Source: an uncultured Planctomycetales bacterium
Lineage (GTDB): Bacteria > Omnitrophota > Gorgyraeia > Zapsychrales > GWA2-47-8
DNA length: 63,063 nt
NCBI GenBank assembly: GCA_964364715.1
Contig: CAYING010000001.1
Span: 33,454-96,516 of the forward strand
Direction of reading: 5' to 3'
Within the stretch, counting starts at the first letter, position 1. The number at the start of each line of letters is the position of its first letter. The position numbers and the translations under genes are program-made. Below the pieces are notes generated by a model, which was not told the origin of the DNA, ran no database searches, and saw only the letters and a program-made list of their open reading frames with translations. Positions 1 to 59,057 of this stretch are shown piece by piece.

Positions 1-55
1 TTATCCCAATTTCATCTGATGGTTAGTTGGGATTTATATAAGGAAAATTGGGATG
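1..55 (+). repeat. Diverged, window-truncated copy of the start-codon-fused leader element (family also at 33450-33546 and 34570-34666)
   Basis: Shares TTATCCCAATT (1-11), GTTGGGA (26-32) and GGAAAATTGGGATG (42-55) with the 97-nt copies. ATG 53-55 is the start of the next CDS. Confidence 0.6.
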
Positions 56-1138
56 AAAAATACTGGGTTTGTAAAAAAAGTATCCGTTGATTCATTGTCT
101 GCGCCGCTGATCCAGCCGTTCCGTACCGCCCTGGGCGAGCATGATACGATGGAAAATGTCCTGTTTACACTTGAGCTTGAGGACGGAACCAAAGGGTTCG
201 GCGAGGCGGCGATCGCCACACACATTACCGGTGAAACGGTTTTAGGAACGATCGAGAATTTAAAATCGTTCGGCAGCCGGTTGATCGGTGAGGATATTTC
301 GGATTATCTGCGGATTTCCTGTATGTTGAACGAACAGTTCGCGAAGAACAAGGCGGCGGTCGCCGCGGTTGAGATGAGCGCTCTGGACGTTTTGACCAGA
401 CAATGGAAGATTCCGTTATGGAAATTGTTCGGCAGCCGTCCGCAAAAATTGATCACGGATATTACGGTTGTCATCGCTTCTCTGCCGGAAACCGAGGACG
501 CGGTCAGGCGGTTTCTCCGTCAAGGGTTCCGCACCTTCAAAGTGAAGATCGGGTGTGACCAGGATGAAGATTTCAAGCGGGTCTTGAGCGTGCGGCGCCT
601 GGCTCGGTATTCGAAAATTATTTTGGACGCGAACCAGGGTTATTCCGCCGATGAGACGTTAAGTTTTTTGAAAAGGCTCGACCGCTCCGGCATCCGTCCG
701 GCGCTGATCGAACAGCCGGTCCCGAAAGAGGATTGGGACGGGTTGAAAAGGGTCAGCAAGTCCACCCGGATCCCGGTCGGCGCGGATGAAAGCATTTCAT
801 CGGTGGCGCAGACGGTCAAGGCGATCCGCGAAAAGGCTGTTACGGCGATCAATATAAAATTGATGAAATCCGGGATCATTCAGGCGCGTGAGATCGCGGT
901 GTTGGCAAGATCTGCCGGGATAAAACTGATGATCGGCGGGATGATGGAAAGTTCGCTGGCGATGACCGCGTCCGCGCATTTGGCGTCGGGTTTGGGCTGT
1001 TTTGACTTTATTGATCTGGACACGCCGTTTTTTATTAAACCCGGTTTTGACCAGAACCCTTATCTGAGTAAGAACGGCGTCTACGATGTCCGGCGGGTGA
1101 GGGCGGGGATAGGGATAGTACCAAAGGTCAAAAGTTAA
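53..1138 (+). CDS. Enolase-superfamily dipeptide (L-Ala-D/L-Glu) epimerase
   Basis: 361-aa ORF with MR/MLE motifs FKVKIG (KxK), DANQGY, IEQP, GADES and NIKLMKSG. Confidence 0.8.
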   Translation: MKNTGFVKKVSVDSLSAPLIQPFRTALGEHDTMENVLFTLELEDGTKGFGEAAIATHITGETVLGTIENLKSFGSRLIGEDISDYLRISCMLNEQFAKNKAAVAAVEMSALDVLTRQWKIPLWKLFGSRPQKLITDITVVIASLPETEDAVRRFLRQGFRTFKVKIGCDQDEDFKRVLSVRRLARYSKIILDANQGYSADETLSFLKRLDRSGIRPALIEQPVPKEDWDGLKRVSKSTRIPVGADESISSVAQTVKAIREKAVTAINIKLMKSGIIQAREIAVLARSAGIKLMIGGMMESSLAMTASAHLASGLGCFDFIDLDTPFFIKPGFDQNPYLSKNGVYDVRRVRAGIGIVPKVKS

Positions 1139-2865: not shown

Positions 2866-3513
2866 ATGGGTAAACTAATTTTAGTCATCGGCAACAAGAA
2901 TTATTCCTCGTGGTCGATGCGTCCGTGGGTGCTTTTGACGCATTTTAAGATCCCGTTCCGGGAAATACTGATCCCGCTGTTTGCGCCGGGAAGCAAGGAA
3001 AAGATCCTTGCGCATTCTTCTGCCGGTAAGGTCCCTGTTCTGAAGGATGGAAAAGTGACTGTCTGGGAATCTTTGGCGATCTGTGAATATCTCGCTGAGA
3101 AATTTCCCAAGAAGGATCTTTGGCCCCAAGACCGCGCCGCCCGGGCCGCGGCGCGCGCCGTGAGTTCGGAGATGCACGCCGGGTTCGGCAACCTGCGCAA
3201 AGCTTGTCCGATGAATGTCATAGCCAATAGACCTTTGGCCGAAATTCCGCCGGATGTCAAAAAAGATGTCGCGCGTATTCAGTCTCTTTGGGAAGACTGC
3301 CGCAAGCGTTTCGGCAAAGGAGGAGATTTTCTGTTTGGAAAATTTTCCATCGCGGACGCGATGTATGCGCCGGTCGTCTGGCGGTTCAAAACGCACGGGA
3401 TAGCGTGTTCGGGGGCGGCCCAGAAATATTTTGAATCGATGCTTCAGCTTCCAGCCATGAAGGAGTGGGAGAAAGCGGCGATCGCTGAACCGTACGTGAT
3501 CGAGCATCGCTAA
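2866..3513 (+). CDS. Glutathione S-transferase family protein
   Basis: N-terminal thioredoxin-like GST pattern (NYSSWSMRPW, GKVPVL, ESLAICEYL). TTG 2854 is an alternative start. Confidence 0.8.
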   Translation: MGKLILVIGNKNYSSWSMRPWVLLTHFKIPFREILIPLFAPGSKEKILAHSSAGKVPVLKDGKVTVWESLAICEYLAEKFPKKDLWPQDRAARAAARAVSSEMHAGFGNLRKACPMNVIANRPLAEIPPDVKKDVARIQSLWEDCRKRFGKGGDFLFGKFSIADAMYAPVVWRFKTHGIACSGAAQKYFESMLQLPAMKEWEKAAIAEPYVIEHR

Positions 3514-3594
3514 TACTGCGTTACCTAAATTTTATTTTAGAGGAGCGCAGTATTGTACCGTGTTCTTCTGACTATAATTTAGGTAACACGGTAC
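3514..3594 (+). repeat. 81-nt twin-hairpin element (inverted copy at 18866-18947)
   Basis: Hairpins TACTGCG/CGCAGTA (3514-3552) and GTACCGTG/CACGGTAC (3555-3594). The loops carry perfectly complementary 11-mers TTACCTAAATT (3521-3531) and AATTTAGGTAA (3576-3586). Confidence 0.85.
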
Positions 3595-3613
3595 GAACAA
3601 TAGCGAAGGTATT

Positions 3614-11771: not shown

Positions 11772-12256
11772 GAAATATCTTGTTGGCAGTGTTCGTGATC
11801 GCGGCAGCCGGATGTGTGACGATGGGAAAATCGGGATTTTACGGGTTCAAGATCGACCAGATGTCGGAAGACCCTTCCTTCAAGATCACCGGTGTTGACG
11901 GGAAAGAGATCCGGCATACTTCCACCAAAACGATGAGCCAGGAGGTCACGGCGTGGGCGGAGATCAGGGGAAGCAAAATTCTTATTACGGTGATCAATGC
12001 CTCCGGAAAACCTATTACATCGGATTATTTTTTTGATAAGTTTACTGTTGTGACAAAGGATAAACAAGAATATCAGCTTAAGAAAGAAACGGAAACCCTC
12101 TACCGTTACCGCAGGGGGGATCATATCAAACCCGGCGGCAAGGCCTTATTCGTTCTCACCAGTCCCCGGACATTCGAAAAGGACGATGTTGAGAAGATCA
12201 TCTGTCAGATCGGGCTTTTGACCGGCGCCCGGATCGTCCTGAAACCCCTTCCATGA
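11762..12256 (+). CDS. Hypothetical lipoprotein
   Basis: Lipobox AAAGCV. No recognised domain. Confidence 0.6.
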   Translation: MEMRNILLAVFVIAAAGCVTMGKSGFYGFKIDQMSEDPSFKITGVDGKEIRHTSTKTMSQEVTAWAEIRGSKILITVINASGKPITSDYFFDKFTVVTKDKQEYQLKKETETLYRYRRGDHIKPGGKALFVLTSPRTFEKDDVEKIICQIGLLTGARIVLKPLP

Positions 12257-13848
12257 ACCCAAAGATCATCCGCGCTATTTATCTGCTGGCTGTAACGGTT
12301 GCGGCCGGCCGTTTTTTTACTCTCGGTGTCCATGGCTTTCTTAATGTCCCGATCCAGAATTGGGGGCAGATTAATGGGTGGAAAAATTTTTTTGTGAGCT
12401 TGCTCGCGTATGGAGCCTGCGCCGGCGCCGCGTTTGTTGTTTTTGAGAAAAGAAAATCCTCTCTCTCGGTTTCAAGCTTTTTCGTTATCTTTCTTTTTGG
12501 TTTTTATTTTTTGCAGCTGATCAATGTTTTTGGTTTTCATTTTAATGAAACTGTTTTTTTGAAAATATGCTTTTTGGCGATGATCGCTTCGGCGGTGTGG
12601 ATCGCGCGGGGGGGAATGACCCTGGGGTACACGAAGAAAAAAATGCAGGCGGAGGAAATTTTGACGGGCCTGATCACGGCGCTCTGGTTGATCGCCAGTT
12701 TGTTTTATTTATTTGAATACAACCTTTCGGAATTCCGGCAGCCTTATTCTGATGAAGTTACGCTTTGGTATACGGCGGCGCATAATATTCTGCGGCAATC
12801 AGCCGCTTTCGCTCATCAGGTGAACTATCCGGGAGGAGGGCATCCCTTGGGAGTGCCGTTCATCGCGGCTTTGCCGGGACAAATTTTCCAGGGCGCCGAC
12901 CCGGCGACAATATTCTTTCTGCCGTTGGTTGTGATCATCTCTTTGGCGGCATTCCTGTGGCGGCTGCGTCAGCAAAAATGGATTTTTTTCTTTTTTACCT
13001 TAGCGCTTTTTTCTTCGTTCAATCAGCGGGAATGGGCGGGAGACCTGATGTACCGGCTCGTTTATGCCGCGGGCATCAGTACGGTTCTTTTTTTGTTGAT
13101 TGTTCATGAATTGTATAAGTTGTCTGAAAAAAAACAAGATGGGCCGATCTGGGGGGTTGCGGTCTTGAGCGGGTTGGCTGCGTTGAGTCAAAGCGTGTTC
13201 GTTTTGATGATCCCGGTTTTCGGCATACTGGTAATTGCCGCCTGCGGGAATACCCACTCCCGGGGTGGAAAGTTTTCCACTCCCGGGCCTGCCTGTCACC
13301 GCCTCTGGCGGGATCCCGCTAAAAGCGGTGACCGGCAGGCAGGGTGGGGAAAAGGGATCCTGTTTTTGATTGCCGCGGGACTTCCGTATGGGGTCTGGAA
13401 AGCGGTCATTGCGATGCCCCAGGGACAATCGCACGATATGGTATTGATGGGAAGGCATCTTCAGGAAAATATTTTCAATCCGCGGTGGGGAGTATTGGGT
13501 GATATTTTTCAATATGGCGCTGAACAGGCCGAAGGGCTGCATTATTTTTTTATTTTATCGATACTGTTGATCCTGATTTCCAGGGATCGGAAGATCATCC
13601 TCACGGCTTCTGCTGTATTCGCGTATGTTGGATTTATTTTTGTGTTTTGTGTTTTTCGTCTGGCCTCCGGGAGCGACCCGGAAAATGCCTTAAGGTATCT
13701 GATGCCTGCGTCATTAGCATTGTTTTATTTGGGCGCACACGCGTATTATGGGCTGATCCAAAAGATCGAACGGATAAATTGTCCGCCGCCAGGGAAATAT
13801 GCCCTGATCGCCGCCATGCTCGCCCTGGTTATGGCCAAAATCTTTTAG
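12253..13848 (+). CDS. Large polytopic membrane protein (GT-C-like shape, family unassigned) carrying an in-frame palindromic-element insertion
   Basis: 531-aa ORF with many TM segments and an ATGA start/stop overlap with the upstream gene. Confidence 0.65.
   Translation: MNPKIIRAIYLLAVTVAAGRFFTLGVHGFLNVPIQNWGQINGWKNFFVSLLAYGACAGAAFVVFEKRKSSLSVSSFFVIFLFGFYFLQLINVFGFHFNETVFLKICFLAMIASAVWIARGGMTLGYTKKKMQAEEILTGLITALWLIASLFYLFEYNLSEFRQPYSDEVTLWYTAAHNILRQSAAFAHQVNYPGGGHPLGVPFIAALPGQIFQGADPATIFFLPLVVIISLAAFLWRLRQQKWIFFFFTLALFSSFNQREWAGDLMYRLVYAAGISTVLFLLIVHELYKLSEKKQDGPIWGVAVLSGLAALSQSVFVLMIPVFGILVIAACGNTHSRGGKFSTPGPACHRLWRDPAKSGDRQAGWGKGILFLIAAGLPYGVWKAVIAMPQGQSHDMVLMGRHLQENIFNPRWGVLGDIFQYGAEQAEGLHYFFILSILLILISRDRKIILTASAVFAYVGFIFVFCVFRLASGSDPENALRYLMPASLALFYLGAHAYYGLIQKIERINCPPPGKYALIAAMLALVMAKIF
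13255..13355. repeat. GC-rich nested palindromic element inside a CDS (family also at 30156-30200, 2838-2851, 22996-23016)
   Basis: TTTTCCACTCCCGGGCCTGCCTG ... CCGGCAGGCAGGGTGGGGAAAA flank an internal arm pair GTCACCGC/GCGGTGAC and the 12-nt palindrome GCGGGATCCCGC (13308-13319). Confidence 0.75.
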
Positions 13849-18865: not shown

Positions 18866-18947
18866 GTACCGTGTACCCTAAATTGTATTCAGGAGAACAC
18901 GGTACAGTACTGCGTTCCTCTCAATACAAAATTTAGGTAACGCAGTA
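18866..18947 (-). repeat. Inverted copy of the twin-hairpin element at 3514-3594
   Basis: The reverse complement of 3514-3594 aligns along its full length (about 85% identity by eye). Both stems (GTACCGTG/CACGGTAC, TACTGCG/CGCAGTA) are retained. Confidence 0.85.
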
Positions 18948-18969
18948 CTAGGATAAAGCCGGATGCAGT

Positions 18970-29850: not shown

Positions 29851-29943
29851 GCCTACCACAATTTCAGAGAAGGCAAATAGCTGCCCCGCAAAGCGGGGGT
29901 TTATTTTAGCCGTAAAATTCACCAAGCAGGAGGGGGAATTGGG

Positions 29944-30144
29944 ATGGTTAAAGGCAAAGTAAAGTGGTTCGACAATAAAAAGGGGTACGGTTTTGTAGTC
30001 CCCGAGGGCGGGAAGGATGTCTTCGTTCATTATTCGACGATACAGCAGGACGGGTTCAAGACCTTAAACGAAGGCCAGGATGTAGAATTCGACATCGTGC
30101 AGACGGACAAAGGCGAACAGGCCCAGAACGTTACTAAAGTTTAA
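29944..30144 (+). CDS. cspA: Cold-shock protein (CspA family)
   Basis: [15 protein letters not shown] (RNP1) and DVFVHYS (RNP2). Confidence 0.93.
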
Positions 30145-30155
30145 GGTTATTAACA

Positions 30156-30200
30156 GTTTTTCCACCCTGCCGGCAGGCAGGCCCGGGGGTGGGGAAAAAC
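30156..30200. repeat. GC-rich palindromic element, same family as 13255-13355
   Basis: GTTTTTCCACCCTGCCGGCAGGCAGGCCCGGGGGTGGGGAAAAAC. Its right half is the reverse complement of 13274-13296. Confidence 0.75.
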
Positions 30201-30217
30201 CAACCCCGGGGTATTTT

Positions 30218-32830: not shown

Positions 32831-32837
32831 TTCCAAG

Positions 32838-32910
32838 TTAAAAATTAAAAATGAAAAATTATAGTTTAAAATTTAAAATTTTGATTTTGCATTTTTCATT
32901 TTAAATTTTA
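32838..32910. repeat. A/T-only heptamer inverted repeat
   Basis: TTAAAAATGAAAAAT (32845-32859) pairs with ATTTTTCATTTTAA (32891-32904). The AAAAWTR period of 7 mirrors the AAAAGTS elements. Confidence 0.65.
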
Positions 32911-32928
32911 CATTGTTAAGGCATATTT

Positions 32929-33449: not shown

Positions 33450-33546
33450 CATGTACTTATTTTCTCTAATAAATACAGAGGAAATAAGTACTTATCCCAA
33501 TTACATCTAAATATATTGGGAATAATTATAGAGGAAAATTGGGATG
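33450..33546 (+). repeat. 97-nt leader element ending on a start codon (copy B)
   Basis: About 94% identical to 34570-34666. Hairpin at 33453-33491. Boxes TCCCAATT (33495-33502), ATTGGGA (33515-33521), GAGGA (33531-33535), AATTGGGA (33537-33544) and ATG (33544-33546). Confidence 0.9.
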
Positions 33547-34608
33547 GTCAACATCGGAATTATCGGCTGCGGGTATTGGGGTCCTAATCTTCTTCGAAAT
33601 TTTAATTCGCTTTCCAACTGCCGGGTCAAAATGGCTGCTGAATTAGACGACTCGCGCATTCTTTACCTCAACCAAAAGTTTCCCTCAGTAAGGACTACCA
33701 AAAATTATAAAGATCTGTTTGCCAATGAGATAGACGCGGTTGTGATCGCGACCCCGCCGACCACGCATTATGCGATGGCCAAAGAGGCTTTGACCCACAA
33801 GAAGCATCTTTTAGTTGAGAAACCTTTGGCGATGAACAGCGTGGACGCCCAGGAATTGATCGATCTGGCGGCCCAAAATATGTGCACGCTGATGGTCGGC
33901 CATACCTTTGAGTTCAATGCCGCGGTCCGGACAATGAAGAAATATGTTCAGAGCGGGGAAGTCGGCAAGCCGTATTATATTTATTCTCAGCGTTTAAATT
34001 TGGGGATTATCCGTCGGGATGTTAACGCCCTTTGGAATTTGGCGCCGCATGATATTTCGATCCTGCTGTATCTTTTTGAAAAAATGCCGGTCAGCGTTTC
34101 GGCGCGCGGATACGCGTTTATCCAGCCGGGGATCGAAGATCTTATCTTCATGACCTTACAATTTCCCGATGACCTGGTCGCGCATGTGCACGTGAGCTGG
34201 CTCGACCCGAACAAGGTCCGGCGGATGACGCTCGTGGGCAGCAAGAAGATGGTGGTCTATGATGATACTTCCGATGCCAAGATCAAGATTTATGAAAAGG
34301 GTATTACCAAAGCAAATATCAATGAATCTTTGGGGCGTTACGATGATTTCGGCGAATTCCAGCTGATGAAATCCGCCGGTAACGTGGTCTTCCCGAAGAT
34401 CGATTTTATCGAGCCGTTAGGTGTCGAGTGCGCCAATTTTATCGATGCCATTACCAATCAAACAAAACCTTTGACCGACGGCGAGAACGGCCTGCGGGTC
34501 GTCAGAATTCTCGAAGCAGCGCAGAAATCGTTAGAGAATAGCGGTCAAACTATTGAATTAGCGGAGTCTCATGTACTTATTTTCCCTAATGAAATACAGA
34601 GGGAATAA
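33544..34608 (+). CDS. Gfo/Idh/MocA family NAD(P)-dependent sugar oxidoreductase (WbpB-like)
   Basis: Rossmann motif IGIIGCGYWG, plus VEKPLA and the family-typical length. Confidence 0.85.
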   Translation: MVNIGIIGCGYWGPNLLRNFNSLSNCRVKMAAELDDSRILYLNQKFPSVRTTKNYKDLFANEIDAVVIATPPTTHYAMAKEALTHKKHLLVEKPLAMNSVDAQELIDLAAQNMCTLMVGHTFEFNAAVRTMKKYVQSGEVGKPYYIYSQRLNLGIIRRDVNALWNLAPHDISILLYLFEKMPVSVSARGYAFIQPGIEDLIFMTLQFPDDLVAHVHVSWLDPNKVRRMTLVGSKKMVVYDDTSDAKIKIYEKGITKANINESLGRYDDFGEFQLMKSAGNVVFPKIDFIEPLGVECANFIDAITNQTKPLTDGENGLRVVRILEAAQKSLENSGQTIELAESHVLIFPNEIQRE

Positions 34609-34666
34609 GTACTTATCCCAATTACATCTAACATATTGGGAATAATTGTAGAGGGAAATTGGGATG
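34570..34666 (+). repeat. 97-nt leader element ending on a start codon (copy C)
   Basis: Same boxes as copy B. Its first 39 nt encode the last 12 codons and the stop of the upstream CDS. Confidence 0.9.
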
Positions 34667-35611
34667 TATCGCGGTAAAAAGATCTCGCTGGTCATTCCTG
34701 CCTATAACGAATCCAAATTGATCAAGCCGACGCTGGAGCATGTTCCGGCAAGCATCGACAAGGTGTATGTGGTCGATGATGCCAGCACCGACAATATGGC
34801 GGAGGTGGTGCGCGAATGTGCGGTCAAGGATCCGCGTGTTGAATTGATTCGGCACACCGTCAATCAGGGGCCCGGGCAGGGGATCATCAGCGGATATTTA
34901 AAGTCGTCGGCGGACGGATATGACATTGCGGTCGTTGTCGGCGGAGATTATCAGATGCCGCTGGAAGAAGTGGAAAATTTCCTGGATCCGATCATCGACG
35001 GTAAAGCGGATTACACGAAGGGCAATCGCTTTCTCCTATGGAAAACGACCAAAGAGCGAATGCCGCCGGTGCGTGTTTTTGGAAATCTTTTAATCACGGC
35101 TTTGACTAAAATCGCATCGGGTTATTACAAAGTTATGGATGTTGTTGACGGCTATACCGCGATCACCAAGAAGGCGATCGATATCATCGACTGGAACATC
35201 GCCTGGAAAAAATACGGCTACCCGATGGATTTTTTGATCCGCTTGAACGCCTATGGATTCAGGGTAAAAGATGTTCCGCGCACCGCGATCTATTTGAAAG
35301 GGGAGCGGCAGTCGCAGATCAAGGGAATGCGCTATGCCCTGCGCGTTTCGCCGATGCTGATCCGCGGATTTTTCTGGCGGATGTTCTACAAATATCTGTA
35401 CCTCGATTTTCACCCGCTGGTATTTTTCTTTCTTTGCGGAATGGTGCTTTTGCCGCTGGGGATCTTGTTCGGTTTTTATCTCATTTATCAGGAAGTGGCT
35501 GGCATCGGGGTTTCCGGCCCGCGGGCGATCCTCTGCGCCTTGTCGATCATCACCGGACTGCAGTTTTTGTTATTCGGGATGTGGTTCGATATGGAAGCGA
35601 CGGAAAAATAA
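34664..35611 (+). CDS. GT2 polyprenyl-phosphate glycosyltransferase (GtrB/ArnC/DPM1-like) with C-terminal TM helices
   Basis: VIPAYNE and VVDDASTD motifs and two C-terminal TM segments. Confidence 0.8.
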   Translation: MYRGKKISLVIPAYNESKLIKPTLEHVPASIDKVYVVDDASTDNMAEVVRECAVKDPRVELIRHTVNQGPGQGIISGYLKSSADGYDIAVVVGGDYQMPLEEVENFLDPIIDGKADYTKGNRFLLWKTTKERMPPVRVFGNLLITALTKIASGYYKVMDVVDGYTAITKKAIDIIDWNIAWKKYGYPMDFLIRLNAYGFRVKDVPRTAIYLKGERQSQIKGMRYALRVSPMLIRGFFWRMFYKYLYLDFHPLVFFFLCGMVLLPLGILFGFYLIYQEVAGIGVSGPRAILCALSIITGLQFLLFGMWFDMEATEK

Positions 35612-41370: not shown

Positions 41371-42019
41371 GAGCATTTTTAACCGGAACATTTTTATCTA
41401 CCTTGCCGTCGCGGCTGTCCTGTTTTTGATCGTGGATAAACAGCGTTACCGGAGTAAGATGATCAATTATCTGACGGTTCCGGTCGGGTATCTGTATTTA
41501 GTGGGGGAAGGCGCGCAGAAAGCTGAGCCGCAAAGAATTTTAGATTATGTGGAATTTTATGAACGTCTCATCGAACATGCGCCGAACGCCCCGGACGCGC
41601 TTGGGATGCTGGGTGTTTCGCATTATTATTTAGGAGATACAAAAAAAGCGGCCGAACTTCTTGAGAAAGCGGCGGCGGCCAATCCGCATTATTTTTGGTT
41701 TCAGTACAATTCGGGTGTGATCTATGCTGAAGAAGGGCAAAGAGAAAAAGCGGCCGAGGCCTTTCAAAAAGCGCTGCGGATAAAACCGCAATTAGCGCTT
41801 TATTTTATCCAAACATCGCGTATCTTAAGATATGTGGAAGACCAGGAATATATTCGGGCTTCTTTGCGGATGCCGTCGCTGAACGTAGATGGGAAGATTG
41901 AAGAAAATTTGAAGGCCGGGTACCAGGCTGCCGCCAGACTCACCATTCTTTTGCAGCAGCAAAAAGCTGATAGGAATATTAAATTGCCGCAGGAACTGCT
42001 GCGGGTCAGGGTTTTTTAA
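41363..42019 (+). CDS. Membrane-anchored TPR-repeat protein
   Basis: TM anchor and 3-4 TPR-like repeats (AxxxxxKAxxxxP pattern). Confidence 0.7.
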   Translation: MIKSIFNRNIFIYLAVAAVLFLIVDKQRYRSKMINYLTVPVGYLYLVGEGAQKAEPQRILDYVEFYERLIEHAPNAPDALGMLGVSHYYLGDTKKAAELLEKAAAANPHYFWFQYNSGVIYAEEGQREKAAEAFQKALRIKPQLALYFIQTSRILRYVEDQEYIRASLRMPSLNVDGKIEENLKAGYQAAARLTILLQQQKADRNIKLPQELLRVRVF

Positions 42020-45000
42020 TGAGCAAGAAAAGTTTACAGCGGGCTGTTTTAGTCTGCGCCGCGGTTTTTGGGCTGGCCGCGGCTTACGGGAATTTTTGCC
42101 GTCAGGCGAAGTACCTGCATTATGAGGTTTTTGATTTTAATCAGACGGTCTCTTGGCAGAAAAAGGACGGGAATATTTTCCGCACCGCGTCGAGGGGTAA
42201 CTTCGATATGTTCCTGCTTGCGAAAGATGATTTTCGGAAAGTATCGCTTAAGCTGAATATCATCAACCCGCGTGACTGCGGGATCCTGTTTAATTATCTT
42301 GGCAAAGATTATTACTATGTGCTGTATTTTGACACGGTCCATCAGGCGGTGTTGTGGCTGCGGATAACGCCGGAGGGAACATCCGTTATTCAGCGGGGAA
42401 TTCTGCCGCCGGTCGCTGTTCTGCCGGTCGAACTGGATCTTTGGAAAGGCGGGGCGAAGTTTTCCATCAAAGGACAAACTCATTCGCAGGTCACGTTCAA
42501 TGATGTTGTGAAGGGGAGCCTGCTTCTGGGCGGGTTGATGATCAAAGATGCCCAGGCTCCCAAGGTCATTTTTAATGATGTTCGCCTCGAGGGGACGACC
42601 AGTGAGGGAACGAGTGTCCAGGGATCTGATTCCATTTCGAATATTCCCCAGGGGCGGTATATTGCAGCGTTGTTGATTTTATGCGCGATGATGACCGCGT
42701 CCGCCTTTATGCTGGCGAGGGTCCTTTCGCGGCTGCAGGAGAAGGATCCCCAAAATAACGAATTCAAATTGTCGGGCTTGCAGGCCGGGCTGATCCACTC
42801 AGCCGCAGCCGCGTTACTATTCCTGCCGTTTATTTTTAAAGGTGAAATTCTTATCTCAAGCGCGGATAACCTCGGACAGATCTTCCCGTTGTTCTTTTTT
42901 TCGAAGCAGAATTTCTTGCAGATCTTCGGCGGGGGAGAGCCGATCCTCTGGAATCCGTATTCGCACAACGGGATCCCGTTCTTTTCCAATCATTGGAATA
43001 TGACCTATTATCCGCTGAATTGGCCTATATTTCTGTTGCCGGATTCATGGGTGATGAGCGCTTTGACTTTGCGCACAATGGTCGAAGTTTTTCTGATCGG
43101 CCTTTTCGGGTATCGTTTGTTCCTGGCGGAATTCGGTTCGGCAAAATGGGCGATGGCCAGTTCGCTTTCGTATCAGTTGGGGTCTTTTTTAATTTTTAGC
43201 TTCACCCTGTTCCCGGTCACGTCATTATTTTTTGCCATGACGTTTTATCTGTACACGCTCTGGACGCTCCCGCAGAGAAAAGATTGGCTGAACGCGGCGA
43301 TGCTGGTGAGCGCGGTTGTTTTGATTTTGCCCGGCGGGAATATGGCGTTTGTGTTTTACGGCGGGCTCACCGTGGCGGTCGCGACGATGTATCGGTGGGC
43401 GAGTGATGGGGAAACACGTAAAAGAGGAATCGTGCTTTTCGGAAGTTTGGTGTCGGCATTTTTGATCAGCGCGGTCCGGATCATTCCGTGCCTATTCGGC
43501 GTCAGTGAAAGTAACCGCGTGGTGGAACATTTTTATACCCTGCATGACCGGGCCGCGATGTTCGTTCGGTTCTTTGTCCCGGAGATCGTCGGCTGGCTGG
43601 GGCCAAATTTTTTTAACGCGCTGACCTCGCCGAATTGGAATTTTATCTATGAGCAGGCGGATCTGCCGTCGAATTCGCAGAACACTTTCTTCGCGTATTT
43701 CGGGATTGTCCCGGGCTTGCTGATCTTGAGCAGTATCCTCATTCCCGTGAAAGGGAAGCTTAAGTTTTGGAAAATCTATTGCTGGGCCGCGATCGCGTTA
43801 GGGTTGATGATCCAACCGTTGTGGGGCATGTTCAATATTTTGACGTTTCCGTTCAATCATTACAGTTATTATATTATCATCCTGCCGCTGGGCGTATGCA
43901 TGCTCGCGGGGTTGACGGGAAAATATTGGGAAGAACAGAGCGTTGATTGGCAGAAATATCGTGAGCGGATCGGCGGCCTTGCCCTGGCGGTGCAGATCTT
44001 GATCGTGGTGATGGTGACGTATCTTTTTCCGCACAATGCACTGTGGGGGAAATTGGCTATCGTGCTTTTGGCGGGATGGTGGCTGGTGCTGCGTTACCTA
44101 AATTTTGTAAATAAGGATAAATATCTTTCGTTCAGCCGGGCCGGATTGCTGGGTCTTTTGTGGATATGGTTTTTCTTTGCTGCGACAGTGCTGGCGATCA
44201 AGCCGATCGTTAATAAAGAATTCATAATGCCTGCGGCGATCCTGCCCATGATCGCGCTTTTTTTAATCGCGGCGTTGGGGAGCGAAATATTCCTGAGAAA
44301 AGGGATGAGATTTGCAGTCCTTTTCCCGGGGGCTGTTTCCGCGGCGGTGTTGGTAATTACAGCGACCCCTTTGCTGGAATTTTTCCTTCAGCTTGAAAAC
44401 GGTGCGCGGAATTATTTTCTCGATATGTCGTTTGCTGAAATAAAATTCTTGGCGCTTTTGCTTTTGTTTTTTGCGGTGCGGGGATTCTTCCGGAGGGGGA
44501 AGATCTCGCCGAGAACGTGCGGAGGGCTATTAATTTTAGTCATCCTTTTTGATCTTTTGGCGTTCAATTACCGTTTTGATAATGTCGTGGCGCCGTCGCC
44601 GTTGGGACAGGCCTTTTATGTCCGCGAGTATTTGTATCGCCCTTTTGAGCCGCGCGTTCATCAGATATTTGATTTAAAGAATTTTCGTATGACTAATCTG
44701 CATAATGCGGGACTGAAAGATAATGAGAATTTGGCTTTAAAAATTCCCAGCTATTCCGGGATCATGGGGCATATGCCGAAACGGTTCTCGAATTTTATCG
44801 TGAACTTCGGCTATCCGGCGCGGACGGTTTTGATCTACCCGTCTGAGTCAACGGACAATGCGCGGTTCTTGGACCTCGGCGCGGTGAAATATATCGGCGG
44901 TTCTGAAGAAGTAAGAGAAACAGCGCTGTCGCGGATGATGTTTTATTCTGATTTTGCGGTTGTTCCGGACGATACGGAAACTTTAAGGACGTTGAAAGAT

Positions 45001-45381
45001 CCGAATTTTATTCCGCAGGAAAAAGTTCTTTTGAGCCGGCAGCCGGAGGGTGTTGTGCCTTTTGTCGGGACCAAAGGAATGCCGGCCGCGATCACGGCAG
45101 TCACGGCTAACAAAATTACTGCGGAGGTGACCGCAATTCAGCCGGGGGTTTTGTTGTTTGCGGAAAGTTTTGATAAAGGCTGGCGGGCCACCGTGGACGG
45201 CAGACGTGTTGAAGTTATTCCGGCGAATTATGCCTTTATGGCGATCCCGGTTGAAAAAGGGGAGCATGCCGTGGTTTTCCGGTATGCGCCGTCGCTGTAT
45301 GTTTTTTCTTTGATTTTAAGCGGGATCGGATTATTTTTATTCGGTATTTTTATGATTTATCTTTTAAGAAAGAAAGCATAA
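42019..45381 (+). CDS. Giant YfhO-like GT-C-type membrane protein with N-terminal beta-sandwich (LamG/DUF1080-like) domain
   Basis: 1120 aa. C-terminal signature FDKGWRATVDGRRVEVIPANYAFMAIPVEKGEHAVVFRY. The roughly 200-aa N-terminal soluble domain follows a signal anchor. Confidence 0.7.
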   Translation: MSKKSLQRAVLVCAAVFGLAAAYGNFCRQAKYLHYEVFDFNQTVSWQKKDGNIFRTASRGNFDMFLLAKDDFRKVSLKLNIINPRDCGILFNYLGKDYYYVLYFDTVHQAVLWLRITPEGTSVIQRGILPPVAVLPVELDLWKGGAKFSIKGQTHSQVTFNDVVKGSLLLGGLMIKDAQAPKVIFNDVRLEGTTSEGTSVQGSDSISNIPQGRYIAALLILCAMMTASAFMLARVLSRLQEKDPQNNEFKLSGLQAGLIHSAAAALLFLPFIFKGEILISSADNLGQIFPLFFFSKQNFLQIFGGGEPILWNPYSHNGIPFFSNHWNMTYYPLNWPIFLLPDSWVMSALTLRTMVEVFLIGLFGYRLFLAEFGSAKWAMASSLSYQLGSFLIFSFTLFPVTSLFFAMTFYLYTLWTLPQRKDWLNAAMLVSAVVLILPGGNMAFVFYGGLTVAVATMYRWASDGETRKRGIVLFGSLVSAFLISAVRIIPCLFGVSESNRVVEHFYTLHDRAAMFVRFFVPEIVGWLGPNFFNALTSPNWNFIYEQADLPSNSQNTFFAYFGIVPGLLILSSILIPVKGKLKFWKIYCWAAIALGLMIQPLWGMFNILTFPFNHYSYYIIILPLGVCMLAGLTGKYWEEQSVDWQKYRERIGGLALAVQILIVVMVTYLFPHNALWGKLAIVLLAGWWLVLRYLNFVNKDKYLSFSRAGLLGLLWIWFFFAATVLAIKPIVNKEFIMPAAILPMIALFLIAALGSEIFLRKGMRFAVLFPGAVSAAVLVITATPLLEFFLQLENGARNYFLDMSFAEIKFLALLLLFFAVRGFFRRGKISPRTCGGLLILVILFDLLAFNYRFDNVVAPSPLGQAFYVREYLYRPFEPRVHQIFDLKNFRMTNLHNAGLKDNENLALKIPSYSGIMGHMPKRFSNFIVNFGYPARTVLIYPSESTDNARFLDLGAVKYIGGSEEVRETALSRMMFYSDFAVVPDDTETLRTLKDPNFIPQEKVLLSRQPEGVVPFVGTKGMPAAITAVTANKITAEVTAIQPGVLLFAESFDKGWRATVDGRRVEVIPANYAFMAIPVEKGEHAVVFRYAPSLYVFSLILSGIGLFLFGIFMIYLLRKKA

Positions 45382-51475: not shown

Positions 51476-52417
51476 TTATACAAAATTCCTCACGATATAC
51501 TCTTTTTCCCAGATCGTTAAAAATTGATGCGCCGGAAAATAAAATCCGCCCTGGTTGTAATATTGCGTGGACTCGACCCCGGCTCCAGTGAGTTGCCGTT
51601 TTACTTGCTCGCCTTTGAATTTTTTCGAAACCCCGGTCACGTAAACACCGGGCACAATATTTTCAGTTAACGGGAAATACGGTGCAAAGCCTTTGGGGGC
51701 CAGATCATAATTGAAGCGATTCCAATTTTCTCGTCGGAGTTTATTCCATCTGTGTAGATGTGGATATGAGGCGTGAATGGTTTGGCGCAAAAGATTTTCG
51801 TCCGCTGTTTTCAGTTCCAATTTGGAATGTTTGATCGCGGAACGCGCGGCAAGTATCCCGCCGAAGGGAACAGGGAAATATTTGGGCAGGCTGTAGAGCG
51901 CGTAATCGCCGAATGTCCCGGCCTTAGATCCTGCAACGCGCGAGCCGAAGGCATAGGCACAATCTTCCAAAATCGGAATACCCTTTTTCTTAAACGGCGC
52001 AATTTTCCATTCCGGGCACGGGAAGCCGAATTCGTGGATCACCAAGATTAATTTTATCCTTTGACCTTTGACCTTTGACTTTTGACTTTGAATGTCCCAT
52101 CGGCAGACTTTTTCGATCGTATCGGTCACGCAGCTGCTCACGTACGGCCCGTCGGTCGTTTTAACGATCACGACCGTGTCGCTGCGTTTCAATTTTAAAT
52201 GTTTTAAGCAGGCGAGAAGCGCTGACCGTCCGCTGGCGTAAAATTTAAGGTCGTGCGCGTTGTCCAGCCAAAAAGACGGCCTGTCCGTCGTGCGTGAAGC
52301 GGCGGAAACTTTTGATTCGAGCAGTTTTTCCCATTCGCGCGGCACGAACGGCGAGATCCGGATAGAAGGGCGCATATGGGGAAGGGGATTGAGCCCGGTA
52401 TCAGAATAATTTTTCAT
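51476..52417 (-). CDS. DegT/DnrJ/EryC1-type PLP-dependent sugar aminotransferase-like protein (short)
   Basis: ILEDCAYAFGS and YSLPKYFPVPFGGIL (Lys) motifs. It contains an in-frame heptamer-repeat tract. Confidence 0.65.
   Translation of the reverse strand: MKNYSDTGLNPLPHMRPSIRISPFVPREWEKLLESKVSAASRTTDRPSFWLDNAHDLKFYASGRSALLACLKHLKLKRSDTVVIVKTTDGPYVSSCVTDTIEKVCRWDIQSQKSKVKGQRIKLILVIHEFGFPCPEWKIAPFKKKGIPILEDCAYAFGSRVAGSKAGTFGDYALYSLPKYFPVPFGGILAARSAIKHSKLELKTADENLLRQTIHASYPHLHRWNKLRRENWNRFNYDLAPKGFAPYFPLTENIVPGVYVTGVSKKFKGEQVKRQLTGAGVESTQYYNQGGFYFPAHQFLTIWEKEYIVRNFV
52058..52090 (-). repeat. Heptamer (AAAGTCA/AAGGTCA) tract inside a CDS
   Basis: The minus strand reads CAAAGTCAAAAGTCAAAGGTCAAAGGTCAAAGG, encoding QSQKSKVKGQR. 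This is the same motif as the intergenic repeats at 1123-1252 and 2737-2830. Confidence 0.8.
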
Positions 52418-57704: not shown

Positions 57705-57867
57705 CAATCATAACATTTTGCACATCAACATGTTATATAAAATGTCCATTTTATTGGGAATTCTTCCTTGTTGCGTGAATATGCGCAACATATACTTATT
57801 ATTGATGATATGAGTTTTCGTGGCGGGCAGCATGACCTAAATTTTATATAAAAATTTGAACATCCAA

Positions 57868-57884: not shown

Positions 57885-59057
57885 ATGATTGATCAACTAA
57901 CCAACCCTAAAAATATTTTGTTAGTTGATGACGACCACCATGTTTCTCAAATGCTTAAACTTCTTCTTGAGACCCGTGGTTATCAGGTCAGTATCGCTCA
58001 TTCCGGACGTTCCGCACTCGAAAAAGCCAATAATTCCATTGACATTATTCTTCTGGACATTGTTCTTCCTGACCATAGCGGTTTTGAGGTCTGCCGCAAA
58101 CTTAAAGAGGGCGATGAAACACGCCATATCCCGATCATTATTTTAAGCGCGAAGTATCTGTTTGAAGACAAAATTGAAGGTTTGTATTTGGGGGCGGATG
58201 ATTATTTGACTAAGCCCTTTGAACATGAGGAGCTGATCGCCCGGATGGAGGCGGTGATGCGCCGGGGATCGCGCGCACACTTTGACCCGGCACTGAATGG
58301 AGAAGAAAACGTTGTATCGGAGCTGAGAAAAATCCTCGATGAAGAATTGATTATCCCGTTCTTTCAGCCGATCTATTTTTTAAAACCATTTAAATTTTTT
58401 GGGCTGGAAGTTTTGACCCGGCCGATCGTCCGCAGTTCCTTGGCGAACCCGGAGTTATTGTTTCGTGCCGCGCTGAAGTACGGCTTGTACCACGAGCTTG
58501 AGATCCTCGCCTGGAAAAAGGCGCTGCAGTTCGTTTCCAAATTCCTTGCCGACCGGAAATTGTTCCTCAACTGCAATCCGTATTTGGTGGAGGGGCCGAA
58601 ATTCCTGACGATCCAATCGATGTTCAGCGATAATGGCATCCATCCCTCGAATGTCATTTTGGAGATCACGGAACGTTCCCGGATATCAGATTACAAGTTG
58701 TTTTATGAACATTTGAAGAAGTACCGTGAATGCGGATTCCGTTTTGCCGTCGACGATGTGGGCGGGGGATTTGCCAGCCTGGAATCCATTGTCGAAACAA
58801 AGCCCGAGGTCGTTAAAATCGACCGGCACATTGTGTCCAATCTTCACATCGATTCCTTTAAGAGAAGCATCATAAAATTTGTCGTCGCATTCTGCCGGGA
58901 GAATAATATTATCTCGATCGCCGAAGGGATCGAATCGAAGCAGGAATTGGACGTCCTGATCTCGCTGGGCGTTGACGCCGGCCAAGGTTATTTCCTCTAC
59001 AAGCCCACCCCCGAGATCAATATCAACGAAATAACCGCCAGAGTTTTAGACAAATAA
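57885..59057 (+). CDS. Response-regulator receiver + EAL c-di-GMP phosphodiesterase
   Basis: REC motifs (LLVDDD, LLDIVLPD, LTKPF). The EAL domain has EVL, NCNP, LEITE, DDVG, KIDR, EGIE and QGY. Confidence 0.85.
   Translation: MIDQLTNPKNILLVDDDHHVSQMLKLLLETRGYQVSIAHSGRSALEKANNSIDIILLDIVLPDHSGFEVCRKLKEGDETRHIPIIILSAKYLFEDKIEGLYLGADDYLTKPFEHEELIARMEAVMRRGSRAHFDPALNGEENVVSELRKILDEELIIPFFQPIYFLKPFKFFGLEVLTRPIVRSSLANPELLFRAALKYGLYHELEILAWKKALQFVSKFLADRKLFLNCNPYLVEGPKFLTIQSMFSDNGIHPSNVILEITERSRISDYKLFYEHLKKYRECGFRFAVDDVGGGFASLESIVETKPEVVKIDRHIVSNLHIDSFKRSIIKFVVAFCRENNIISIAEGIESKQELDVLISLGVDAGQGYFLYKPTPEININEITARVLDK

Follow-up and report, generated by a model that had tools for sequence, protein, structure and literature searches.

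Introduction

Repeats that carry a ribosome-binding site (RBS) and an ATG fused to many unrelated genes have been known since 2000, among them the REP2 repeats and the inverted repeats (IR) of Borrelia. The REP2/CREN repeats of Neisseria have no terminal inverted repeats, contain two internal stem-loops, provide an RBS and an ATG fused to open reading frames (ORFs), and form the 5′ untranslated region (Delihas 2011, PMC3184786, citing Parkhill 2000 and Morelle 2003). The origin and spread of REP2-type repeats were left as an open question (PMC3184786). Here, we analysed a 63-kb window (by which we mean the whole stretch of 63,063 nt, from contig CAYING010000001.1 of assembly GCA_964364715.1, Omnitrophota in GTDB) that holds three copies of an element of ~93 nt, each of which ends on the start codon of the gene that follows it. 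For this element, exact junctions before and after insertion can be read, and they make the question of origin testable.

The reading that we favour, with a probability of about 60%, is that of a small non-autonomous mobile element that inserts precisely at the ATG of a gene, in sense orientation, and becomes the leader of that gene, with masking and decoy helices. In the literature we found no description of this element, nor of start-codon-inserting repeats in Omnitrophota.

Results

Three copies of the element open three unrelated genes

The terminal ATG of each copy is the start of a long ORF, and the three genes are unrelated: a Gfo/Idh/MocA oxidoreductase (Pfam domains) for copy 1 (terminal ATG 33544-33546, ORF 33544..34608), a GT2 gene for copy 2 (ORF 34664..35611), and an MR_MLE dipeptide epimerase for copy 3 (ORF 53..1138). 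A preliminary description of this DNA had proposed a portable translational-control leader with three copies, each ending on the ATG of an unrelated gene. All the coordinates it gave for the boxes, the hairpin, and the ATG match the sequence, and the three genes are real. The two full copies (33450-33546 and 34570-34666) are ~93% identical, differing by 5 substitutions and 2 single-base indels. In the family as a whole, the median size is 93 nt (range 77-113 nt). The element has a G+C content of 27-33% vs 48.6% for the window, and the RNA folds of the two full copies reach z-scores of −5.3 and −3.6 against shuffles.

The features of the three copies are listed here, with the evidence in brackets (SD, Shine-Dalgarno sequence; TIR, translation initiation region; MFE, minimum free energy).

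33451..33453, + strand: copy 1, former start codon (ATG) of the oxidoreductase, kept as the insertion's left edge (empty sites in L067/L068)
33453..33491, + strand: copy 1, hairpin P1, GTACTTATTTTCTCT/AGAGGAAATAAGTAC, with a 15-bp stem and a 9-nt loop (fold of −16.2 kcal/mol; covariation)
33493..33508, + strand: copy 1, box X plus anti-SD, TATCCCAATTACATCT, complementary to its own SD, spacer, and AUG (RNAalifold/MFE pairing with 33531-33546)
33495-33502, + strand: copy 1, box X, TCCCAATT (read from the sequence)
33515..33521, + strand: copy 1, candidate decoy box X'1, ATTGGGA, alternative partner of X (constrained folds)
33531-33535, + strand: copy 1, SD-like GAGGA (read from the sequence)
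33531..33546, + strand: copy 1, new TIR, GAGGAAAATTGGGATG, made of SD, 8-nt spacer, and ATG (conservation; ORF 33544..34608)
33537-33544, + strand: copy 1, X'2, AATTGGGA, overlapping the ATG at 33544-33546 (read from the sequence)
34571..34666, + strand: copy 2, complete, with the old ATG at 34571-34573 (empty sites in L067/L068)
34573-34612, 34614-34629, and 34635-34641, + strand: copy 2, P1, X plus anti-SD, and X'1, respectively
34651-34666, + strand: copy 2, new TIR, whose new ATG (34664-34666) opens the GT2 gene
34574..34608, + strand: element-encoded C-terminal tail of the oxidoreductase, ...VLIFPNEIQRE*, stop at 34606-34608 (ends of proteins P0001 and P0002 compared)
1..55, + strand: copy 3, cut by the window/contig edge (49.5 bits, covariance-model positions 52-104)
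2-17, 25-33, 40-44, 46-55, and 53-55, + strand: copy 3, X plus anti-SD, X'1, SD, X'2-ATG, and ATG, respectively

The window's contig and L001, an independently made assembly, are broken at one and the same point within copy 3, as is expected of a repeat.

Empty sites in close relatives

In close relatives, whose proteins are 89-92% identical, all three sites of the window are empty. In contigs L067 and L068, which encode the oxidoreductases P0002 (92% identity) and P0003 (90%), the MoaC, oxidoreductase, and GT2 genes are packed together and the element is absent. At the site of copy 1, these contigs read ...cctATG|gtcaacatcgga (full form ...ctagttcctATGgtcaacatcgga), with 47 nt between MoaC and the oxidoreductase, and the window reads ...ctagtggcATG[TAC...GGGATG]gtcaacatcgga. 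At the site of copy 2, they read ...ggagtcccATG|tatcgcggtaa (ggagtcccATGtatcgcggtaa), and the window has 93 nt added after that ATG. When the 93 nt of copy 2 are removed in silico, the oxidoreductase of the window overlaps the GT2 start, with GGAG ahead of it; this old SD is located 4 nt upstream of the old ATG. The ancestral protein ending ...AESHVSR* was predicted from the window sequence before P0002 was examined, and P0002 ends in ...AESHVSR. Indeed, in both L067 and L068 the oxidoreductase overlaps the GT2 start by 14 nt and its protein has this ending. Copies 1 and 2 are precise 93-nt insertions, with an ATG on each side.

The element also rewrites the C-terminus of an overlapping upstream gene. 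The stop codon of the oxidoreductase (34606-34608) falls within the P1 hairpin of copy 2, therefore the last residues of the protein are encoded by the element: with the insertion, the ancestral ...AESHVSR* became ...AESHVLIFPNEIQRE* (P0001).

For copy 3, the comparison is with L072 (89% amino acid identity, from the same sample as L067), L073, and L075, where an NlpC/P60 gene overlaps or abuts the epimerase start and no element is present. Furthermore, the covariance model described below found no copy in the 37 kb of the relatives' contigs. The junctions are thus exact at two sites and the element is absent from relatives at the third. All three window copies are missing from the closest relatives sampled, therefore the family has been recently active. 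The element is mobile and non-autonomous, besides being a leader. The preliminary description had opposed these two natures, a leader on one side and a generic transposable element of the miniature inverted-repeat type (MITE) on the other; mobility and leader character were both found, and only the choice between them has to be dropped.

The family in other genomes and metagenomes

We scanned one genome per species with the pattern TATCCCAATT-N28-40-AATTGGGATG, which forces an ATG end. A total of 38 loci was obtained, 17 with the full architecture and 21 without the hairpin, the latter being chance matches. Twelve of the 17 come from metagenome-assembled genomes (MAGs) labelled Omnitrophota, nine of them from one MAG (GWA2_47_8), and the remaining five from two MAGs labelled Planctomycetales. 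One of these two (L073) shares the gene order of the window and is therefore a relative. Because the first pattern forced the ATG end, a second scan was run on metagenomes without the 3′ constraint, requiring the hairpin end and box X only (GTAC[N]TATCCCAATTNCATCT). It returned 27 loci, i.e., 19 real elements and eight chance matches, and all 19 elements are in sense orientation and at gene starts. At the expected distance, 18/19 finish in A(A/T)TTGGGATG, and the new TIR is conserved as AAGGAAAATTGGGATG in 18/19. The 19th copy (L062), although split by a nested repeat of ~200 nt, has its end at the start of mreD.

Chance does not explain the repeat, as the same architecture occurs at more than 30 further loci in Omnitrophota MAGs and metagenomes, always in sense orientation and fused to the starts of unrelated genes. 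The portability suggested in the preliminary description was borne out by these copies and by the empty sites, and the element in fact moves; fixed orientation and start-codon fusion also held in all copies, including the 19 found without a constraint on the ATG end.

In every copy with a long enough locus, the terminal ATG opens an ORF of 67-617 amino acids. The targets include the genes for L29 (S10 operon), MutS, GlmU, HypD, HldE, CinA, a pseudopilin, RsmD, an ABC ATPase, and others, and no functional theme was found among these downstream genes. Some copies lie inside operons, such as those between rplP and rpmC (S10 operon) and between mreC and mreD, and some of them separate genes that are translationally coupled. 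A covariance model (R1) built on 31 copies scores known copies at 67-107 bits, and in 296 kb it found no intact copy away from a gene start. In Rfam, nothing matched the element at the gathering threshold; the hits at E ≤ 10 were noise. A viral, plasmid, or phage origin was rejected, with 0 element matches in viral contigs and no blastn match in plasmids and phages.

For some genes, the orthologues of two genomes both carry a copy. This holds for CinA (L040/L041) and HldE (L022/L031), and also for L017/L061 and L044/L049. These copies indicate long retention, with compensated changes in P1. In the HldE pair, the N-termini are ~97% identical, 49/53 nt are alike from X to the ATG, and the P1 hairpins are entirely different, therefore P1 behaves as a swappable module.

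The old start codon and its upstream flank

An ATG is present at the left edge of 29/29 analysable copies. The composite elements L029 and L039 also have it, and the homology between these two loci begins exactly at ATG|TAC. A perfect TATAAT lies 6-9 nt upstream of the old ATG in 9/29 copies, against a background of 2.9%, the share of all ATGs at these loci that have a hexamer with ≥5/6 matches (p = 7e-8). TATAAT at 6-9 nt ahead of an ATG is the arrangement of leaderless genes. In 10/29 copies, the old ATG is preceded by an SD-like motif spaced as at a start site, and one of the two signals is found in 18/29 vs 17.6% in the background (p = 1e-7).

Copy 1 has the −10-like TATTCT 6 nt upstream of its old ATG and no SD, and this ATG looks like a leaderless-type start. 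Coherently, the empty oxidoreductase sites have TATCCT or TATTCT 6-7 nt upstream and no SD, and the empty GT2 site has GGAG. In general, the retained 5′ ATG looks like the ancestral start codon, and the flank upstream of it looks like a real start site. As the start-like signals stand in flank that is not homologous among copies, the promoters would belong to the targets and not to the element. As the old starts appear to be leaderless or coupled, the element would give a leader to starts that had been leaderless or translationally coupled. A pyrimidine precedes the old ATG in 20/29 copies, and the target specificity is little more than (Y)ATG.

Hairpin P1 and the alternative helices

Among the 11 outer pairs of P1 in 22 distinct copies, 92.6% of the cells are paired, and 7/11 pairs show compensatory changes (at pair 7, for instance, 13 copies have G-C and nine have A-U). 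The covariation score is 0.309 vs 0.160 in shuffles, 0/500 shuffles reach the observed value, and slid controls collapse. This argues that P1 is a real structure. U.G wobbles are frequent, therefore the stem would be specific to the sense strand.

The conserved 16-nt box TATCCCAATTTCATCT (UAUCCCAAUUUCAUCU) is complementary to GGAAAAUUGGGAUG, which is the SD, spacer, and AUG of the element itself. In every copy this pairing comprises 11 bp including the AUG, a 2-nt bulge, and 3 bp (UCU with the GGA of the SD), and box X plus anti-SD is invariant or nearly so in 31 copies. X is also complementary to X'1, at a distance of ~7 to ~19 nt across copies. A 9-mer is strongly conserved in X'1 and X'2, along with AAGGA, and GGA occurs in AAGGA, X'1, and X'2.

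The mutually exclusive helices X:X'1 and X:X'2-AUG, already pointed out in the preliminary description, were recovered in folds and could be extended to the pairing of the whole 16-nt box with SD, spacer, and AUG. In copy 1, constrained folds give −7.5 kcal/mol for X:X'1 and −9.7 kcal/mol for X:TIR. The OFF-minus-ON energy has a median of −1.2 kcal/mol (range −9.7 to +5.0), and the two states lie within 3 kcal/mol of each other in 22/31 copies, so the two alternative helices are predicted to be nearly isoenergetic. In silico, the median probability that the SD..AUG stretch is unpaired is 0.17, 0.18, 0.20, and 0.25 at 10, 25, 37, and 50°C, respectively; for comparison, the values for 36 other gene starts in the window are 0.51-0.63. 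At equilibrium, the TIR is thus predicted to be largely masked.

Variant elements have pairings of the same kind. In the variant subfamily L057:4429-4516, the anti-start GTCATCG pairs with CGATGAC, and UCAUCU pairs perfectly with the SD, AGGUGA; on this basis, CATCT can be read as an anti-SD. In L029 and L039, the extra pair CCCAACTT/AAGTTGGG is an X/X' helix with a compensated inserted base pair.

A model of leader action

In the favoured model, the old ATG would stay at the left edge and the right edge would supply a complete new TIR in frame with codon 2, so that the gene would survive the insertion. Once transcribed, the element would be the leader of the gene, with P1 as a 5′-terminal or intercistronic stabilising hairpin; it is established that 5′ hairpins stabilise bacterial mRNAs. 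Two partners would be available to the 16-nt box: pairing with the new SD-spacer-AUG would mask translation, and pairing with the decoy X'1, which is nearer, would keep the TIR free. The trio X/X'1/TIR would then set or gate translation, with the ON helix forming first during transcription. Expression would depend on one of the following: co-transcriptional X:X'1 pairing, a relay from the old AUG, or a factor.

The relay assumes initiation at the old AUG by ribosomes, which would then open P1 and X. The frame-0 upstream ORF (uORF) from the old ATG is open through X in 15/28 copies vs 17/56 for the other frames (p = 0.056), and in five copies it ends in an ATGA that overlaps the new start. The uORFs of the window have 19 and 24 codons, with stops 36 and 21 nt ahead of the new ATG. 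A conserved leader peptide starting at the 5′ ATG was rejected as a coding feature: there is no conservation among the peptides, several of them end after 2-7 codons, and the reading frame changes from one window copy to the other.

Several points weigh against the favoured model. Only three insertions are demonstrably recent, and the exact junction of copy 3 is unreadable, owing to differing N-termini and to the cut at the window edge. X and the TIR hardly vary, so that their pairing rests on complementarity and on the variant families and not on covariation within the family. Covariation, which the preliminary description had proposed to check, is seen in P1 (0/500 shuffles); in X:TIR, the sole variable pair has one compensatory change, four wobbles, and three mismatches. 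In 11/28 copies, the frame-0 uORF stops >12 nt before X, and the case for the relay is suggestive and not firm. No transposase or recombinase was found by Pfam among the ~60 ORFs of the window, and the association with start codons could partly reflect selection or retention and not targeting. Finally, we infer from the sequence both the transcription of the element and the effect of masking on translation, as we do the trigger of the switching and the enzyme that moves the element.

What could move the element

According to the boundaries of the empty sites, the element starts with TACTTATTT... and ends with ...AAATTGGG(ATG). These ends are not complementary, and terminal inverted repeats are lacking. 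On the left, the boundary is no more than a few nt away from the 5′ foot of P1; on the right, it coincides with the 3′ foot of the X:X'2 stem. The ATG on both sides of the insertion fits a 3-bp duplication and an element ending in ATG inserted 3′ of an ATG equally well. This pattern would be expected of single-strand (HUH) or small-core site-specific recombination, and not of DDE transposition. The ~60 window ORFs include no integrase, Y1, RAYT, or TnpA gene.

Two further candidates were rejected. The first was L062 as an autonomous element's left end; it is an ordinary copy, located between mreC and mreD, with a nested ~200-nt repeat and no transposase. The oxidoreductase standing between two copies could have been an integron-like cassette; the copies are dispersed, and each was inserted independently at an ATG.

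Intergenic ATGs that are neutral should be more numerous than start codons (our own estimate). Every intact copy, including the three recent ones, is located at a start, which therefore favours real targeting or very strong filtering; the data do not separate the two. A more specific proposal, which we regard as doubtful, is that the machinery homes to start codons (at leaderless genes, to an ATG that an open promoter complex leaves single-stranded on the non-template strand, or else at coupled junctions) and that the old-AUG relay, through ribosomes or the 5′ end of the transcript, renders the insertion harmless by unmasking the new SD-AUG. If true, this would be a previously undescribed "gene-friendly" insertion strategy, combined with a natural portable translational switch, and would provide a mechanism for the spread of REP2-like start-fused repeats.

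Alternative explanations

The element could be purely selfish DNA. In such a case, P1 and X:X'2 would be single-stranded DNA structures for the moving enzyme (HUH/Y1-type, as at IS200/IS605 ends or REPs) with no regulation involved, TIR masking in RNA would be a side effect, and X'1 would merely offset it. The asymmetric ends without terminal inverted repeats and the boundaries at or near hairpin feet would fit this explanation, and P1-type GTAC hairpins also occur alone or paired, as in REP/BIME. Furthermore, the G.T wobbles suit the top DNA strand as well as RNA, and the target genes lack a functional theme. Nevertheless, we consider it unlikely, because X, X'1, and a compensated P1 have been kept where different species carry copies at orthologous genes, and because the variant subfamilies re-create an anti-start/anti-SD pairing fitted to their own TIR, which is unexpected for a pure transposase-recognition site. 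The retention of X is partly an ascertainment effect, since detection required an intact X. Moreover, neither a Y1 nor another transposase was found among the ~60 window ORFs.

The element could also be a platform for a factor acting in trans. A global RNA-binding protein (CsrA-like), a small RNA, or a DNA-binding regulator would bind to AAUUGGGAU, which occurs three times (one of them as the complement), and to the GGA motifs, and the targets would form one regulon, as proposed for REP2/CREN. The strong conservation of the 9-mer in X'1 and X'2, with AAGGA, could be read in this way, and a factor could tip the balance between the near-isoenergetic helices. A precedent exists, as REP2-associated genes are co-induced on host-cell contact (PMC3184786). 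However, the conservation of X'2 is already accounted for by its pairing with X, an X-X'1 distance of ~7 to ~19 nt suits a hairpin loop better than a dimeric operator, and no candidate factor was identified; such a platform is thus improbable.

A ligand riboswitch, an RNA thermometer, or a portable promoter, all brought forward in the preliminary description, is very improbable: the alternative helices do include the SD and the AUG, and the AT-rich element has some −10-like strings, but the downstream genes are functionally unrelated, the element has no Rfam match, there is no conserved multi-helix aptamer beyond the two hairpins, the predicted TIR accessibility hardly changes from 10 to 50°C, and for the embedded promoter TTACAT-N17/18-AATTAT, whose TTACAT matches TTGACA at 2/6 positions, a consensus scan found no + strand sigma-70-like site in the element, copies of which lie in operons (rplP/rpmC) or just downstream of flank promoters.

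The cspA start

The start of the cspA gene in the window carries GAATTGGGATG at 29936-29946, and the rest of the element is not there, as the preliminary description had noted. A relationship to the element did not hold up: cspA as a source or remnant was rejected, since its orthologues carry ...GGAGGGACTCGGGGATG and other initiation regions. The AATTGGGATG of the window cspA is therefore lineage-specific, and the match could be due to chance, a remnant, or micro-conversion.

Related repeats and variant elements

Hairpins homologous to P1 are also found outside the element. Two tandem pairs are present in the window:

3510..3600, strand not assigned: tandem pair of GTAC-headed P1-type hairpins without X/TIR, between the GST-like and DUF3192 genes (R1, 36-38 bits, both strands)
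18866..18951, strand not assigned: another tandem pair of hairpins with GTAC heads, located upstream of a PilZ gene (R1, 36 bits, both strands)

The stretches 3510-3600 and 18866-18933 are mutually inverted repeats ~15 kb apart. This GTAC-hairpin family (GTACYGYGTTACCTAAA...TAGAGGAGCRCAGTAC), with one or two hairpins homologous to P1, also occurs at L038:4271-4375 and L035:2463-2563. Its members occupy short intergenic gaps, including rpsQ/rplN, and are REP/BIME-like. Half-arms of the family (GCTGCGTTACCTAAATTTTGTA) lie at 44083-44125, in a large YfhO-like ORF (42019..45381), and at 57827-57864, upstream of a response-regulator/EAL gene at 57885.

Among the variant elements, the composite at L029:1815-1969 and L039:4470-4625 measures ~170 nt and occupies two loci of one genome with unrelated flanks. 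It consists, in order, of the ATG, a truncated P1, the CCCAACTT/AAGTTGGG hairpin, a degenerate dead initiation region (..AGTTGGGACG), a second hairpin, and a normal X/X'1/TIR. The variant at L057:4405-4520, ahead of a response-regulator gene, has ~30 nt (SD, ATG, and first three codons; AAAGGGATAAGGTG.TG.AGCGATGAC.GC) on both sides of a P1-like hairpin plus TTTCATCT; the hairpin foot is an inverted copy of the gene's own start region. At L038:3710-3850 (rplP/rpmC), the full element has a partial 3′ half from a different copy ahead of it (TTTTAGGATAATTAAGGAAAATTGGGATG|TAC...), which suggests a re-insertion at an ATG that itself derives from an element; the old AATTGGGAT can lengthen P1 by pairing with X. 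At L062:12150-12450 (minus strand), the copy between mreC and mreD is split between X'1 and the SD; the nested ~200-nt insertion carries two palindromes, CCACCTACGAGGTGT...ACACCTCGTAGGTGG, and belongs to another mobile repeat family.

The window contains other repeats as well. Long, imperfect palindromes of the 7-nt unit AAAGTCA/TGACTTT, a separate family, fill intergenic gaps (e.g., epimerase/DUF819) at 1123-1252, 2742-2835, and 52048-52103, with an AT-rich relative at 32833-32916. G+C-rich palindromic repeats (CCCGGGGTGG..CCACTCCCGGGCCTGCCTG) lie at 30174-30210, downstream of cspA, and at 13259-13353, inside ORF 12253..13848 (531 amino acids), which has no Pfam match and may be a wrong ORF call.

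Discussion

Copies in essential operons (rplP-rpmC and mreC-mreD) illustrate how such operons can survive a mobile element. In practice, metagenome assemblies break at the element, and it can lead to wrong calls of start codons in Omnitrophota MAGs. The ~55-nt natural part that holds the putative anti-TIR, decoy, and TIR could be tried as a tunable translation module.

By their defining features, classical MITEs, REPs, riboswitches, RNA thermometers, and attC sites do not include this element. Integron attC sites are the easiest to set apart, since the copies of the element are dispersed among housekeeping genes, including the S10 operon, and there is no integrase in the window. MITEs (e.g., Correia) and the Rickettsia palindromic elements are, like the element, small, non-coding, multi-copy, and mobile, with presence/absence polymorphism, and are tolerated as expression is kept or modulated. 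In contrast to them, the element has no terminal inverted repeats, is found in one orientation and always at a start codon, and replaces the TIR, whereas the others add a promoter or an in-frame peptide.

Leaders that sequester the SD and the AUG, i.e., expression platforms and RNA thermometers, share with the element the mutually exclusive helices, one of which buries SD and AUG. Kinetic folding traps, such as that of the MS2 maturation gene, are also SD/AUG-sequestering leaders, and the nearer helix should form first in transcription. Unlike these leaders, the element is tied to no gene or pathway, has no sensor domain and no predicted temperature dependence, and is a transposable cassette.

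REP/BIME and IS200/IS605-derived palindrome-associated elements are mobilised by Y1 HUH transposases, and the head of REP is GTAG. The element resembles them as a short structured repeat without terminal inverted repeats and with a tetranucleotide-headed hairpin (GTAC in this case), and its very short target and asymmetric ends would fit single-strand transposition. However, REPs are mostly downstream of genes, in both orientations, and have no TIR, the cleavage sites of IS200/IS605 are some distance from the hairpin feet, and the start-codon specificity of the element has no counterpart among them.

The IR-A/IR-B repeats of Borrelia plasmids lie immediately upstream of genes, have an RBS and an ATG, and carry two internal inverted repeats near the 5′ end (Dunn 1994, via PMC3184786), as the element does. 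They differ in being low-copy and plasmid-borne, with a promoter described, and neither empty sites nor an anti-SD/anti-AUG box are reported for them (PMC3184786).

The REP2/CREN repeats, compared here by description only, differ from the element in that they are described with their own promoter, whereas the recognisable promoters of the element are in unrelated flank and some of its copies are in operons. The element comes from another phylum, Omnitrophota, and has exact ATG junctions, a kept old start, and a self-complementary anti-TIR with a putative decoy, which are not reported for REP2 (PMC3184786). The likeness extends to the rest of the design: a multi-copy repeat of ~100-150 bp, without terminal inverted repeats, ahead of functionally diverse genes, with two stem-loops (P1 and the predicted X:X' helix in the element) and with an RBS and an ATG that open the downstream ORF.

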